From an uncultured cyanobacterium (GTDB taxonomy: Bacteria; Cyanobacteriota; Cyanobacteriia; Cyanobacteriales; Nostocaceae), in the NCBI GenBank assembly GCA_963706595.1, contig OY970166.1, forward strand, positions 1,504,001-1,568,000: 64,000 bases of DNA. The letters run 5' to 3'. Position numbers and translations under genes: made by a program. Under the pieces are notes generated by a model that worked only from the letters and a program-made list of their open reading frames with translations, searched no databases and was not told where the DNA came from. The first letter of the stretch is position 1; each line of letters begins with the position of its first letter. Shown here piece after piece: positions 23,272 through 29,527 of the stretch.

Positions 23272-25698
23272 TTAATTACGAATTATTTTCTTAGCGAATT
23301 GCCAAAGTAAATAAAACGGTAAAGTTACAATACCCAGTAAAATTTGTAGAAACTGATTGAGCCGTCGTTTCCAAATAGCAATGGGAGTTAACTTTTTTCG
23401 CAGAATTGCCAAGTTTTCTCTAATTGTCGCTGTAGTGGGATGATTAACCCCTAATACCCGTTGACACATCTCCAAGGCTTGAATGTAGAGGGGTTCGGCA
23501 TCACTGTAGCGCCCTTGACTATAGTAGAGTAAGGCTAAATTGTTCAAGCTAGTAGCCAGATCAGGATGGTCGCCGACAAACAAGCGCTGTCTCATCTCCA
23601 AGGCTTGAATGAAACGGGGTTCGGCTTCACTGTACCGCCCTTGACTGTTGTAGAGAAGAGCTAAATTGTTCAAGCTAGTAGCCAGATCAGGATGGTCGTC
23701 GGCAAACAAGCGCTGTCTCATCTCCAAGGCTTGAATGAAACGGGGTTCGGCATCACTATACCGCCCTTGAATATCGTAGAGTGCAGCTAAATTGTTCAAG
23801 CTAGTAGCGACATCAGGATTGTCGCCGCCAAACAAACGCTGTCTCATCTCCAAGGCTTGAATGAAACAGGGTTCGGCATCACTGTACCGCCCTTGACTGT
23901 TGTAGAGTGCAGCTAAATTGTTCAAGCTATTAGCCAGATCAGGATGGTCGCCGACAAACAAGCGCTGTCTCATCTCCAAGGCTTGAATGAAACGGGGTTC
24001 GGCATCACTGTACCGCCCTTGATTGTTGTAGAGTGCAGCTAAATTGTTCAAGCTAGTAGCGACATCAGGATTGTCGCCGCCAAACAAGCGCTGTCTCATC
24101 TCCAAGGCTTGAATGAAGAGGGGTTCGGCTTCACTGTAACGCCCTTGATTGTTGTAGAGTGCAGCTAAATTGTTTAAGCTAGTAGCGACATTAGGATGGT
24201 CGCCGACAAATAAAGCTTGGCAAACATTGACACATTTCTCATACCAAGGTTCTGCTAATTGATATAGTCCTTGTCCTTTATAAAATCTTGTTACTCCTAC
24301 AAATATCCCAATTACTTGATTATTGGGAACTGATGCTGGGGAATTTATCTGTGTTTCACCTGCTTGCTTAATCTCAGCAATTATCCTATTTCCCAAGTCT
24401 TCAATATGGGGAACAACATCCTTGATGCGTTCGATATCCTCAGAAGTGGGTGATTGGGGAAGGCTTTGAGCTACCGTTATCATGGCAGAAGCAAAGGTTG
24501 TTTCTAAAACTGATTTTATTTCCCCAGAATTAGTTAACTGTTCTTGCAAGAACCATTGCACCAAAGCATGAATTTTATAATATTCTCCTTCTGTAGCTTC
24601 TACCAGTTGCAGCAAGTTACGTGCGTAAAGTTGCTTTTTGGCTGCGTTTATTTCCTCTTGTGACCAAGTTAGTTGTGTTGCTGCTGCATCTTCTGCTTTC
24701 CCGCCATCTGTCGCCACCCAATTCACCAAATCCCAAAGAATCTGTTGGGGAGCAAATAAACTCAAAAATTTTCCTAATTGTTGTGTGAGGGGGTCAAGTT
24801 TTTCCCAAGTTAAGGTAAACGCTGCTTTGACTCCCAGTTGCGCTTGACCAATGGTAGAATCTGGCTCTCTTTGTAAAGATATTTCAGCTAATTTTTGGGT
24901 TTTTAACCTCTCAAACATTGTATTCAGAGATAGTCCTGGGTCACGGACTAAATAACCTCCGACTAACTCTATCCCCAAAGGTAAATATTCCAGACATTTA
25001 CATATTGCAGTTGCAGCTTCTAATTGATTTTCAACTCGCTTGTCTTTGTTCCCTAACAATCGTTTTAACAGTTCTAATGCTTGTCCTGGTTCTTTTTCTG
25101 GAGAAAGAACATCTAAAGAAATCTCTTGAATAAAATTCGGGTCTAAATTTCGTTGTATGGTTGTCACCAAAACGCGAAAGCGTTGATCTTCGGGTAAGAC
25201 TTGGCGGAGGTTGGCTAAGTCTGTGACATCATCGAAGACTATTAATATAGGCAAGGTAGAGTCAGGATATCTAGACCAACACCAAGCAACTTGTTCTTTT
25301 AGGCTTAACAGTTTGCCCCCTAGTTCTTGGGGAATCTTGAAACCAAGATTGATAAAAAATTCCAAGATTTCAGCAGCAAGATTACTGTTGCGATCATTGA
25401 ACCAAGCAATACCGCCATAATTATCTTGATATCTTTTGGCGTATTGGGTAACTAATTCGGTTTTACCTACGCCTCCCATCCCTGAAATTGCCACATAATT
25501 TCCACGCTGCAAGTCTTCATGCACTCGTGTCAGTTCCTGTTCACGTCCGACGAAATGAACAGAACCACGATCAGGAATATATTTTGTGGGAGTTAACTGT
25601 TTCTGACCCTGAATAATTTGAGTATCAATGTTAACTTGACTACCAGGAGCAGCATAAGCACCAATTTTGTCCGCAAGCTTCCCAGAGTCGTTAAACAT
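23272..25698 (-). CDS. NLR-like STAND protein: short N-terminal motif, NB-ARC, TPR array, C-terminal hydrophobic tail
   Basis: FVGRE, GMGGVGKT (Walker A), LIVFDDV (Walker B), VLVTT, YLPLGI, IHALVQ; six near-identical 42-aa TPRs (TSLNNLAALY..QGRYSEAEP). Confidence 0.92.
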   Translation of the reverse strand: MFNDSGKLADKIGAYAAPGSQVNIDTQIIQGQKQLTPTKYIPDRGSVHFVGREQELTRVHEDLQRGNYVAISGMGGVGKTELVTQYAKRYQDNYGGIAWFNDRNSNLAAEILEFFINLGFKIPQELGGKLLSLKEQVAWCWSRYPDSTLPILIVFDDVTDLANLRQVLPEDQRFRVLVTTIQRNLDPNFIQEISLDVLSPEKEPGQALELLKRLLGNKDKRVENQLEAATAICKCLEYLPLGIELVGGYLVRDPGLSLNTMFERLKTQKLAEISLQREPDSTIGQAQLGVKAAFTLTWEKLDPLTQQLGKFLSLFAPQQILWDLVNWVATDGGKAEDAAATQLTWSQEEINAAKKQLYARNLLQLVEATEGEYYKIHALVQWFLQEQLTNSGEIKSVLETTFASAMITVAQSLPQSPTSEDIERIKDVVPHIEDLGNRIIAEIKQAGETQINSPASVPNNQVIGIFVGVTRFYKGQGLYQLAEPWYEKCVNVCQALFVGDHPNVATSLNNLAALYNNQGRYSEAEPLFIQALEMRQRLFGGDNPDVATSLNNLAALYNNQGRYSDAEPRFIQALEMRQRLFVGDHPDLANSLNNLAALYNSQGRYSDAEPCFIQALEMRQRLFGGDNPDVATSLNNLAALYDIQGRYSDAEPRFIQALEMRQRLFADDHPDLATSLNNLALLYNSQGRYSEAEPRFIQALEMRQRLFVGDHPDLATSLNNLALLYYSQGRYSDAEPLYIQALEMCQRVLGVNHPTTATIRENLAILRKKLTPIAIWKRRLNQFLQILLGIVTLPFYLLWQFAKKIIRN
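23450..24215. repeat. Six near-identical 126-bp tandem repeats encoding the TPRs
   Basis: CATCTCCAAGGCTTGAATG recurs every 126 bp. Confidence 0.9.
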
Positions 25699-25719
25699 AA
25701 ATATTTCAGATAAAAATAA

Positions 25720-26015
25720 TCATTGTGGGGTGGGTGTCCTCACCTCACTTTTCACATCATCTGGAAAAACCAAAGCGAAACCTAACCCCCTAGCCCCCTT
25801 CCCTACCAGGGAAGGGGGAAAATTCAAAGCCTCTCCAATATCAAAGTTTTTCCTTTTCCCTCTCCTCGTAGGAGAGGGCTAGGGAGAGGTAGGGGAGCGG
25901 TTTGGAGAGAGGTTTTCCAAATCCTGTCCTCACCCGCCCAAAACAGGCAAGACTTGTACTGAGCTTGTCGTTCGCGTAGCGTGGCGTTAGCCATAGTATG
26001 CCTGTTCCACAAGAA
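25720..26015. repeat. Cluster of nested palindromic and short dispersed repeats
   Basis: CCCCCTTCCCT-ACC-AGGGAAGGGGG and CCCTCTCCT-CGT-AGGAGAGGG hairpins; GC-rich inserts within AGGCAAGA^TGCCTG. Confidence 0.7.
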
Positions 26016-26036
26016 AATTGAAGACAATACTTCAGC

Positions 26037-26435
26037 TTAAAAAGACTGATTTTGAATATTTCCTGTCCCTCCAGGCATGACTACCTGACCAATTTTGTCA
26101 GCCAACTTTTGCAGATTAGGCATAGCCAGAATTTCTGCAAACTTGGGATTGGGTTCTGCTTTTGCGGCTGCTGCCAATTCCTGTGCAGCTTGTGCCACTT
26201 CCGGATCAGCCTGCGCCGCAGATTCCACCTCAATAACAGCTTTGCCATAATCTAGGGGTTGTTCTGGTGCTTTCTCAATTGCAACGACAGTTTGAGGAGA
26301 GTGTTTTCTCAGCTTGACAAGAAATTGACCAGTTTTATCCCATAAAACATCGCATACCTTTTCGCCCGTTTTTTCTAAGGCTTTGGTGGCGACTACAGAC
26401 CCAATGGCGATCGCAGCAGTAGTTAAAGGTTCCAT
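26037..26435 (-). CDS. Small alpha-helical protein, putative NLR effector (Bell/HeLo-like N-terminus) with a C-terminal motif matching the NLR N-terminus
   Basis: N-terminal hydrophobic helix MEPLTTAAIAIGSVVATKALEK; C-terminus KLADKIGQVVMPGGTGNIQNQSF. Confidence 0.75.
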   Translation of the reverse strand: MEPLTTAAIAIGSVVATKALEKTGEKVCDVLWDKTGQFLVKLRKHSPQTVVAIEKAPEQPLDYGKAVIEVESAAQADPEVAQAAQELAAAAKAEPNPKFAEILAMPNLQKLADKIGQVVMPGGTGNIQNQSF

Positions 26436-26615: not shown

Positions 26616-27902
26616 TTACAAGACGCGCAGTAAACTGGGAATACTATCGATCGCCTCTAAATTCTGAATTTCTGCCAAGGCTTGTCGGAAATCGCCTTCT
26701 CGCACATCGTGAGTGACAACCACAATTTCTGCTAGTCCTCCCTGAAAGCCTGTTTGGACTACTGACTCTAAACTCACGCCATAGTTACCAAAGCAAGTAC
26801 CCAATTTACCAATGACTCCGGGTTGGTCTTTAGTCAGGAACCGGGCATAAAATCGCGTTACAAGTTCGGTGATGGGTGCAATTTCACAGTAATCTTGGTG
26901 TCCACAAGTTAATAGTGGATTGGGGTTAGTTGTACTGGTTTTGAGAACAGCAACTAAATTCAAGATATCCGAGGTGACGGCACTAGCTGTCGCACCCGCA
27001 CCTGCACCGGGGCCAAAAAACATTACCTGCCCTATGGGTTCTCCTTCTACGAGAATGGCATTATAAACACCATTAATACTGGCTAACGGATGTGTTTTGG
27101 CTACTAAAGTGGGATGCACTCTGACGGAGAGGGGAGATGAAGGTGTGTATTGTTTAGCGATCGCTAACAATTTAATCACAAATCCCAATTTTTCGGCGTA
27201 GGTAATATCTGTCTTACTAACTTGCCGAATGCCTTCACAATAAACATCTTCTAAATTGATGCGTCCATCAAAGCCTAATGATGCCAGAATAGCAATTTTA
27301 TCGGCTGCGTCTAAACCGTCTACATCTGCCGTGGGATCAGCTTCGGCATAACCTAATCTTTGAGCATCAGCTAAGACATCACTGAAGTTGCTGCCTTCGG
27401 TTTGCATCCTGGTGAGGATGTAGTTAGTTGTACCGTTAACGATGCCTGTAATAGTATTAATACGGTTAACGCTTAAGGACTGCTTGAGGGGTTGAATCAC
27501 TGGGATTCCGCCGCCTACAGCCGCTTCTAACATCACATATACCCCGGCTTGGTTGGCAGTTGTAAAGATTTCTGCCCCAAAACGCGCGATCGCGGCTTTA
27601 TTGGCGGTGACGACGTGTTTACCATTTTTTAAAGCTTGGAGAATGAGCGATCGCGCTGGTTCCAGTCCCCCAATCAACTCCACAACAATATCTACCGCCG
27701 GGTCATTGACAATAGACTCTAAATCTGTAGTTAAGACATCGGCTGGTAATTCTACATCCCGAATTTTAGCAAGCGATCGCACACCCACGCGATATATTTC
27801 TACTTCCTGCAATAACGGGTTGCGTCCCACCACATCTTGCAGTAACTGCACCGTACCTGTGCCGACAGTGCCTAAACCTAATATTCCTAGTTTCACTCCC
27901 AC
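26616..27902 (-). CDS. hom: Homoserine dehydrogenase with C-terminal ACT domain
   Basis: GLGTVG, VVTANK, EAAVGGGIP, NGTTNYIL, GYAEADP, GPGAG. Confidence 0.96.
   Translation of the reverse strand: MGVKLGILGLGTVGTGTVQLLQDVVGRNPLLQEVEIYRVGVRSLAKIRDVELPADVLTTDLESIVNDPAVDIVVELIGGLEPARSLILQALKNGKHVVTANKAAIARFGAEIFTTANQAGVYVMLEAAVGGGIPVIQPLKQSLSVNRINTITGIVNGTTNYILTRMQTEGSNFSDVLADAQRLGYAEADPTADVDGLDAADKIAILASLGFDGRINLEDVYCEGIRQVSKTDITYAEKLGFVIKLLAIAKQYTPSSPLSVRVHPTLVAKTHPLASINGVYNAILVEGEPIGQVMFFGPGAGAGATASAVTSDILNLVAVLKTSTTNPNPLLTCGHQDYCEIAPITELVTRFYARFLTKDQPGVIGKLGTCFGNYGVSLESVVQTGFQGGLAEIVVVTHDVREGDFRQALAEIQNLEAIDSIPSLLRVL

Positions 27903-28162: not shown

Positions 28163-29527
<1,365 letters not shown>

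Follow-up and report, generated by a model that had tools for sequence, protein, structure and literature searches.

Why should one small protein end, and the large protein encoded beside it begin, with nearly the same short peptide? This question is raised by two genes at positions 23272-26435 of a 64,000-nucleotide stretch of DNA from an uncultured cyanobacterium of the Nostocaceae (contig OY970166.1, positions 1,504,001 to 1,568,000), the whole of which is called the window here. A preliminary description proposed that the two genes, encoding a 132-aa protein and an 808-aa NLR-type protein with NB-ARC and TPR domains, form an amyloid-signalling pair acting in cell death or immunity. Our analysis finds that the region is a two-gene sensor/effector module of the published Bell/NLR class, carrying the motif BASS5, and that it is an ordinary member of this class and not a new family. 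The window pair is thus one more copy of a described class; its main value lies in the comparison with a one-frame form, in which the two parts stand in a single reading frame. Related loci compared with the window are labelled L001-L112, and we refer to the two-gene form as type A and to the one-frame form as type B.

The shared motif and its class

The 132-aa protein closes with ...NLQKLADKIGQVVMPGGTGNIQNQSF / ...AMPNLQKLADKIGQVVMPGGTGNIQNQSF (K110 at 26108), and the 808-aa NLR opens with MFNDSGKLADKIGAYAAPGSQVNIDTQ. The pattern KLADKIG-x4-PG-x3-NI-x2-Q, to which the preliminary description had drawn attention in these two termini, is present as claimed, and 12 of its 21 positions are identical; when the last 40 residues of the small protein are aligned locally with the first 60 of the NLR, the score is 55 (z = 8.0, 200 shuffles). 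The synonymous codon differences that had been listed between the two copies (TTG/CTT, GCT/GCG, GGA/GGT, AAT/AAC and CAG/CAA) can likewise all be read in the DNA. The motifs are short, which would favour a resemblance by chance or through low complexity; we nevertheless give this explanation next to no probability, as against it stand the z-value in the window, those of 3.5-13.1 in other type-A pairs, the recurrence of the resemblance at 44 loci and the existence of a curated class to which the motif belongs.

A scan of a genome collection gave 80 loci, which together with the window make 81 sources. Seventeen of these were left out of the pair analysis, the NLR being missing or the Bell length odd, and the 64 pairs with a usable Bell open reading frame (ORF) and a downstream P-loop ORF were examined. 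A KLADKIG-type motif is found on both sides in 44 of the 64, the type-A NLR beginning M[PS]EDSGKFA[DE]K[IV]G..., with the P-loop ~67 residues after the motif start. Within a pair, the two motifs are identical at 8-15 of 21 positions, which we count in favour of a BASS pair because it falls in the range of BASS pairs that cross-seed, for which the available literature reports identities of 43-56%. Bell motifs score 46.05 against their own NLR partner and 45.20 +/- 0.31 against permuted partners (p 0.006), a figure which the relatedness of the loci inflates. At L044 an N is replaced by H in both motif copies, and at L004, L033 and L037 the motif partners are near-identical. Between the window and L001, the ratio of nonsynonymous to synonymous substitution rates (dN/dS) is 0.08 for Bell and 0.55 for the NLR; judged by these values, the pair is under purifying selection. 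The pairing is conserved across the Nostocales; conservation of the motif in orthologous pairs, on which the preliminary description had made its proposal depend, is seen in the 44 pairs.

The same description had left room for the motif being a new family. This idea fails, because the motif matches members of class C07, which is BASS5 according to the README of supplement 1 of Dyrka et al. 2021 (PMC8086366); here and below, published work is cited from its available sections. Identical and near-identical sequences occur in that class. On the Bell side there is C07_s037 (...LAMPNLEKLADKIGQVVMPGGTGNIENMSF), the last 30 residues of which recur unchanged in the Bell proteins of L013, L016 and L017, as their tails, and differ from the window tail at 3 positions; on the NLR side there are C07_s033 (MPEDSGKFAEKIGAFAAPGAQVNIGTQIIEGQK) and C07_s030 (MNDNFSKLADKIGAVALPGGTVQVNTQNIDGQK). 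By sequence, then, the window motif is the published BASS5, assigned by near-identity to class members and not by profile score. Cyanobacteria share BASS5 with Actinobacteria, as reported by Dyrka et al. 2020 (bioRxiv 10.1101/2020.01.06.895854).

In most orthologs the first residues of the NLR (MP, 5 residues before K) resemble the A-M-P-N-L-Q-K that stands just before the motif in Bell (in the window, 25681-25698 and 26104-26123, respectively). This hints that the NLR head may be a duplicated Bell tail that begins at an internal Met.

The two proteins and the proposed signalling mechanism

The small protein is predicted to be a Bell-type helical domain of ~100 residues with a hydrophobic N-terminal helix, followed by a disordered BASS5 tail. 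Its AlphaFold 2 (AF2) model, built from an alignment of 90 sequences with a mean predicted local distance difference test score (pLDDT) of 75, has helices at residues 3-23, 29-45, 47-54, 63-76 and 78-93, with block pLDDT of 73-89 up to residue 103. As described by Dyrka et al. 2020 (bioRxiv 10.1101/2020.01.06.895854), a Bell protein measures 120-140 aa, forms a helical bundle of ~100 aa, opens with a hydrophobic helix and is acidic at its second or third residue; the window protein agrees with this in its N-terminus (MEPLTTAAIAIGSVVA), its length of 132 aa and its helices to residue 103. The link to the Bell family seeded from ONI86675.1 is an indirect one: the BASS5 set was cut from those authors' Bell homologs, and it includes orthologs of the window protein.

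A word-indexed search gave 732 homologs of the 132-aa protein at E<=1e-3; the 120 matches listed measure 131-132 aa, and nearly all the named ones come from Nostocales. An exhaustive representative search gave 250 relatives, mostly matching residues 1-104 only, and in the long Bell-containing proteins among them the domain is joined to HEAT repeats, dynamin-like GTPases or other partners, the type-B linker being absent. No family in Pfam, NCBIfam or PADLOC matched the protein, these libraries containing no Bell model. The window's own genome has a single copy of the Bell gene. At L042 (4953-8162) an ORF of 1069 aa has Bell-BASS5 fused directly to the middle of an NLR, with NB-ARC deleted, which is either a natural deletion variant or an error of a metagenome-assembled genome.

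The large protein is, by its domain content, an NB-ARC/TPR STAND ATPase whose sole N-terminal feature is the second BASS5 copy. That it lacks an N-terminal effector domain had been stated before, and the Pfam scan of the 808-aa NLR agrees, finding no family upstream of residue 47 (residues 1-46 are uncovered). In BASS pairs the motif is at the effector C-terminus and at the N-terminus of an NB-ARC or NACHT protein, and the genes lie within 5 kb and are usually collinear (Dyrka et al. 2020). In the window the two genes are on a common strand and 338 bp apart, with the motif at residues 110-132 of 132 and 7-27 of 808. The likeness to BASS/Bell and NWD2/HET-S layouts seen in the preliminary description, with a helical effector ending in the motif beside a co-oriented NLR beginning with it, therefore stands, and the layout is that of 44 of the 64 pairs. 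Only the adjacency needs correction: the genes are co-oriented as described, but they do not abut, the 338-bp spacer between them being mostly dispersed repeats.

Published BASS5 Bell/NLR pairs (Dyrka et al. 2020; PMC8086366) resemble the window in the 132-aa Bell effector, the collinear NB-ARC/TPR NLR, the motif and the filamentous cyanobacterial hosts. Nothing essential sets the window apart from them, although its spacer of 338 bp is long, 57% of the published collinear pairs being <=10 bp apart, and the published set may not have included the copy from this genome. The fungal NWD2/HET-S systems (and HELLP, HELLF) similarly combine an N-terminal templating motif on the NLR with an adjacent helical, membrane-targeting protein that carries the motif at its C-terminus. 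In contrast to these, Bell has no sequence homology to HeLo that was detectable in published work, the fold search of the window protein gave no specific match, and the Bell side has one motif copy where HET-S has two pseudorepeats. In Escherichia coli, Bab/Agp (BASS11; bioRxiv 10.1101/2024.11.07.622273) is an abortive-infection system, and the only bacterial case in the available literature for which a phenotype has been demonstrated. Here too the killer is small, helical and related to Bell and has an amyloid motif at its C-terminus, and it is activated by a neighbouring TPR sensor with an N-terminal motif, but the system differs from the window in motif class and host, and in being prophage-borne.

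From NWD2/HET-S, the BASS1 and BASS3 pairs and Bab/Agp we infer a mechanism for the window pair, in which the amyloid templating by BASS5 is likewise drawn by analogy. Binding of a ligand by the TPR array would lead to oligomerisation through NB-ARC; the BASS5 motifs at the N-termini of the clustered NLRs would take up a cross-beta fold, and this would serve as the template on which the tails of Bell, the more abundant partner, fold likewise. The hydrophobic helix of Bell could thereby be freed to attack the membrane, so that the cell would be killed or arrested, the outcome being abortive infection or another regulated cell death in the filament. A Bell/NLR BASS5 module with this proposed templated cell-death mechanism is, in our judgement, probably the best explanation of the locus as a whole.

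Several observations weigh against it. In the AF2 model, residues 106-118 form a low-confidence helix and residues 118-132 are disordered. Foldseek of the model against the PDB returned nothing at E<=1e-3 (best E 0.7, with Rx-CC at E 1.8), VIA-align wide returned generic helical proteins only (best Z 5.1), and neither fold search picked up a specific resemblance to HeLo, MLKL, Rx-CC or Bab. The pair is without a PADLOC model, and the locus lies among presumed housekeeping genes (hom, petH), outside any defence island. The BASS5 motif contains a central Pro and charged K and D residues, and under general amyloid-motif grammars BASS5 is reported to be 'not modeled properly', with most of its symbols common to it and to disordered, non-amyloid regions (available text of the grammar paper). 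Prion and fibril tests in the 2020 preprint cover BASS1 and BASS3 (bioRxiv 10.1101/2020.01.06.895854); in the available literature on BASS motifs we found tests for BASS1, BASS3 and BASS11 and no BASS5 experiment.

Some of these observations would suit a different role for the shared peptide, namely that of a docking motif, acting 1:1 or in a small oligomer by helix-helix contact or beta-augmentation, through which the effector would be retained or let go by the NLR, no prion-like templating being involved. BASS5 fits the amyloid-motif grammars worst and is the most like disordered regions, its Pro and charged residues are accompanied by a weak AF2 helix over KLADKIG, and the available BASS literature yielded no BASS5 fibril data. 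On the other hand, the layout, the motif length of ~21-25 aa, the G/N/Q content of its second half (GTGNIQNQ, QVNIDTQ) and the identity between partners match those published for tested BASS pairs. Moreover, the same Bell domain bears other BASS5 variants and, at other loci, BASS9-like tails, as would be expected of exchangeable templating modules. We consider docking of this kind improbable.

The one-frame form and its stop-plus-hairpin junction

L071, a Nodularia record, is a syntenic ortholog of the window locus with the same neighbours. Its DNA is 92-93% identical to that of the window in two blocks, one reaching from the upstream flank to Bell codon ~103 and the other covering the NLR from codon 34 to its end, and its NLR is 87% identical over 776 residues, C-terminal tail included. 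Between these two blocks the loci differ. The window junction (529 bp) runs from the motif through TAA, the 338-bp spacer and ATG to the second motif, whereas the L071 junction (155 bp) holds a different BASS5 variant, TGA and a hairpin (stop and hairpin at 5433-5463 of L071, syntenic with window 25699-26127) and has no spacer, no NLR start codon and no NLR-side motif. For the NLR, dN/dS is 0.46 between the window and L071 and 0.55 between the window and L001, from which it appears that the type-B NLR evolves like a translated gene. Two forms at the same chromosomal site argue, as far as sequence can, that both do the same job, and the contrast between the window and L071 is in effect a natural swap experiment.

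The presence of the two parts in one frame in L071 points to a functional tie between Bell and NLR. The preliminary description had set against its own proposal the case of the two ORFs being fragments of one formerly fused gene: a single frame is indeed found in L071, but it is interrupted by UGA and ties the parts together, and the pairing is not refuted by it. The same ortholog might also be taken to mean that a single recoded gene came first and that the window pair is what decay or transition has made of it, its NLR motif being a vestigial duplicate and its signalling lost; the filling of the window spacer with dispersed repeats and the existence of deletion variants such as L042 would fit this. 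However, the window has an intact ORF for each protein, two separate genes that keep both motifs are found at 44 loci in many genera, and dN/dS is 0.08 for Bell and 0.55 for the NLR, this last value being no higher than in comparisons that include L071, so that we regard decay as very unlikely.

At the type-B loci L056-L080 the Bell domains are 59-93% identical to that of the window over the matched segment and are followed by other BASS5 variants, which are also in class C07 (...NVFQGNTFNAPVTFN; ...AQRDINVETQNINI; ...AQNQTIDQRGSTFNI). In 23 of these 25 loci (the exceptions being L062 and L065) the Bell ORF ends in TGA and the NLR lies directly behind it in the same frame. The 30 nt after the stop are conserved (TGA cta aag tcg tcY gaM SGG gaa cgg aca aag), and 8 nt past the stop they contain a hairpin of 5 bp (GUCCG, an 8-nt loop, CGGAC), which RNAalifold found unaided. 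In an alignment of 42 sequences 98.5% of the cells are paired, compared with 8-39% in slid controls. Pair 28-43 is U-A in 24 and C-G in 15, with two exceptions, and the covariation score of the alignment was reached by none of 500 shuffles; 19 of the 42 rows came from a pattern that fixes part of the stem, in which Y28 and R43 were free to vary.

A total of 43 stop-plus-hairpin junctions were found (L056-L112), and 42 are tabulated. The stop codon is TGA in 37, TAG in 5 and TAA in none; the base at +4 is C in 38, G in 3, A in 1 and never U; and the next codon is CTA in 17, CTG in 14 and another in 11. In 36 of the 42 there is no ATG, GTG or TTG from the stop to the NB-ARC start. Ten of the downstream frames fall below 400 aa while ending within the locus, and these are decayed, misassembled or of another type. 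Among 301 genomes of the order, the stop-plus-hairpin pattern was found at 15 sites in 14 genomes (reversed-pattern control 0) and the hairpin-only pattern at 18 sites in 15 (control 0), five of the hairpin-only sites having TAG in place of TGA. Both scans together cover 18 of the 301 genomes, the window's own genome having no such site.

The junction joins more than one kind of effector to more than one kind of ATPase. Upstream of it stand, among others, Bell, PNP_UDP_1 (L082:559-1500) and an alpha/beta-hydrolase resembling PGAP1/DUF676 (L102:359-1195, L110:525-1490), each of the three non-Bell effectors ending in a short BASS-like tail; PNP_UDP_1 and alpha/beta-hydrolases are effector types at the N-termini of fungal NLRs. 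The partners downstream of it include NB-ARC-TPR, NACHT-HEAT (L077), NB-ARC/APAF1_C (L076) and AAA-TPR (L080) proteins. The tail at L095 contains a BASS9 entry, Ccya03_s002. At L107 (G025:C35, ~1440-1560) an NLR with its own start has a BASS7-like head (ENWQGINLKGGNPTI) and a hairpin-coding SSERERVK linker without a stop, and this locus appears from its sequence to link the two-gene and one-frame forms.

We lean, with somewhat better than even confidence, towards programmed readthrough at type-B loci, which would give a free effector-BASS protein and a rare effector-BASS-NLR fusion, the two forms of the locus being interchangeable junction cassettes. Most ribosomes would halt at the stop and release free effector-BASS, while a few would read through it and make an all-in-one effector-BASS-NLR sensor. 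One gene would thereby supply both partners of amyloid signalling and fix their ratio. The junction would then serve the NLR systems of cyanobacteria in general as a module for recoding, linking Bell, PNP_UDP and hydrolase effectors to NB-ARC, NACHT and other STAND ATPases.

Programmed readthrough is known at the UGA between coat and A1 of coliphage Q-beta. We favour it at type B because the junction signal matches features known from readthrough: UGA is the leakiest stop and UAA the least leaky, +4 C and the context UGA-CUA are listed, and structure follows after an 8-nt spacer as in murine leukaemia virus (MuLV) (PMC7026636). In that source MuLV gag-pol has a UAG with an 8-nt spacer and a pseudoknot, UGA-CUA contexts are given, and the Q-beta coat/A1 UGA is named. 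Type-B loci, and not the window, are like these signals in having UGA or UAG and never UAA, +4 C, CUA or CUG next and RNA structure 8 nt after the stop, and a short abundant and a long rare product would similarly come from one frame. They are unlike them in that they are chromosomal bacterial immune-type genes with only a 5-bp hairpin and an 8-nt G-rich loop, known from sequence alone. We know of no precedent for readthrough with a structured stimulator in bacterial cellular genes. When L071 was read with TGA as W, none of 101 matches spanned the Bell part (region 60-200; proteins of 511-1628 aa), and the finding of no sense-codon Bell-BASS-NLR fusion suggests that the stop may be needed.

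Three other explanations of type B have to be considered. Ribosomes might re-initiate at the codon after the stop, and annotators do start such NLRs there (e.g. P0276, P0277, P0288); but CUA, CCA, GAA and AAG are not start codons, and the NLR that resulted would be without a motif. Alternatively the junction might be a site of recombination at the DNA level for cassette exchange, which would leave the strict frame and the choice of stop codon unexplained. Thirdly, the type-B loci might be widespread pseudogenes, but the dN/dS values contradict this, as do the long frames that are still intact.

Two further candidates were rejected. Selenocysteine recoding was discarded because none of 5 genomes had selA (TIGR00474) and none of 5 a tRNA-Sec above the cut-off, because UAG is the stop at five junctions, and because the element has no Rfam match. 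A pseudoknot of the loop's GGG with a CCC further downstream was dropped, since pairing there reaches only 70.9% and those three bases also encode a conserved Pro.

If type B does work by programmed readthrough, it would add a rare example of the structured kind among the cellular genes of bacteria, and would explain what sets the levels of sensor and effector. Many NLRs of cyanobacteria whose annotated start comes right after a stop would also be the C-terminal parts of longer recoded proteins. Literature searches on readthrough in BASS, NLRs and cyanobacteria, which lay outside bioRxiv supplements (e.g. Table S2 of Dyrka 2020), gave no description of the stop-plus-hairpin junction, and a term search in the available text of published BASS papers gave 0 occurrences of stop codon or readthrough.

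Feature coordinates and surroundings

Table 1. Features of the gene pair, in window positions.
Feature	Position	Strand	Remarks
132-aa Bell-type effector gene, C-terminal BASS5 motif	26037..26435	-	ORF; stop TAA 26037-26039
Bell-like helical domain, residues 1-103, hydrophobic first helix, Glu at position 2 (MEPLTTAAIAIGSVVATKALEK)	26127..26435	-	predicted from AF2 model and homolog search
Bell-side BASS5 motif K110-F132: KLADKIGQVVMPGGTGNIQNQSF	26040..26108	-	orthologous tail identical to C07_s037
Spacer, 338 bp	25699..26036	-	mainly three short dispersed repeat elements
808-aa NLR-type sensor gene: N-terminal BASS5 motif, NB-ARC, helical linker, TPR array, conserved C-terminal tail	23272..25698	-	
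NLR-side BASS5 motif K7-Q27: KLADKIGAYAAPGSQVNIDTQ	25618..25680	-	near-identical C07_s030 and C07_s033 in BASS5 set
NB-ARC nucleotide-binding domain, residues 54-281, P-loop GMGGVGKT	24856..25539	-	Pfam PF00931, E 1.6e-12
TPR sensor array, ~residues 439-762, near-identical 42-aa units	23413..24384	-	Pfam TPR_12 (E 1.6e-120) and TPR_10, seven stretches each
Hydrophobic/amphipathic NLR C-terminal tail IAIWKRRLNQFLQILLGIVTLPFYLLWQFAKKIIRN	23275..23385	-	kept in consensus of 35 NLRs and in L071

The DNA repeats of the TPR array cross-match in several registers at 85-88% identity, which suggests repeat shuffling, as in other NLR sensor domains. Behind the array the NLR C-terminal tail follows the pattern IWKRRL..LPF.LLW....IRN, and this tail may be a membrane anchor or an autoinhibitory helix. 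The spacer repeats, at spacer positions ~10-94, 110-148 and 201-294, are like miniature inverted-repeat transposable elements (MITE-like) and have 51 further matches in the window's own genome; among orthologous pairs, the spacer is 30-608 bp long. Consensus scans of the coding strand between both genes found no clear promoter or terminator.

Next to the pair in the window are what we take, from their translations, to be hom, encoding homoserine dehydrogenase (26616-27902), and petH, encoding a ferredoxin-NADP reductase-like protein (28163-29515). The gene order around the pair is common to the window, L001, L002 and L071, and the locus looks like a long-resident chromosomal site and not a mobile defence island. 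Upstream of the Bell locus at L060 (2765-2861) there is a thiamine pyrophosphate (TPP) riboswitch (RF00059, 60.1 bits), which is unrelated to the gene pair.

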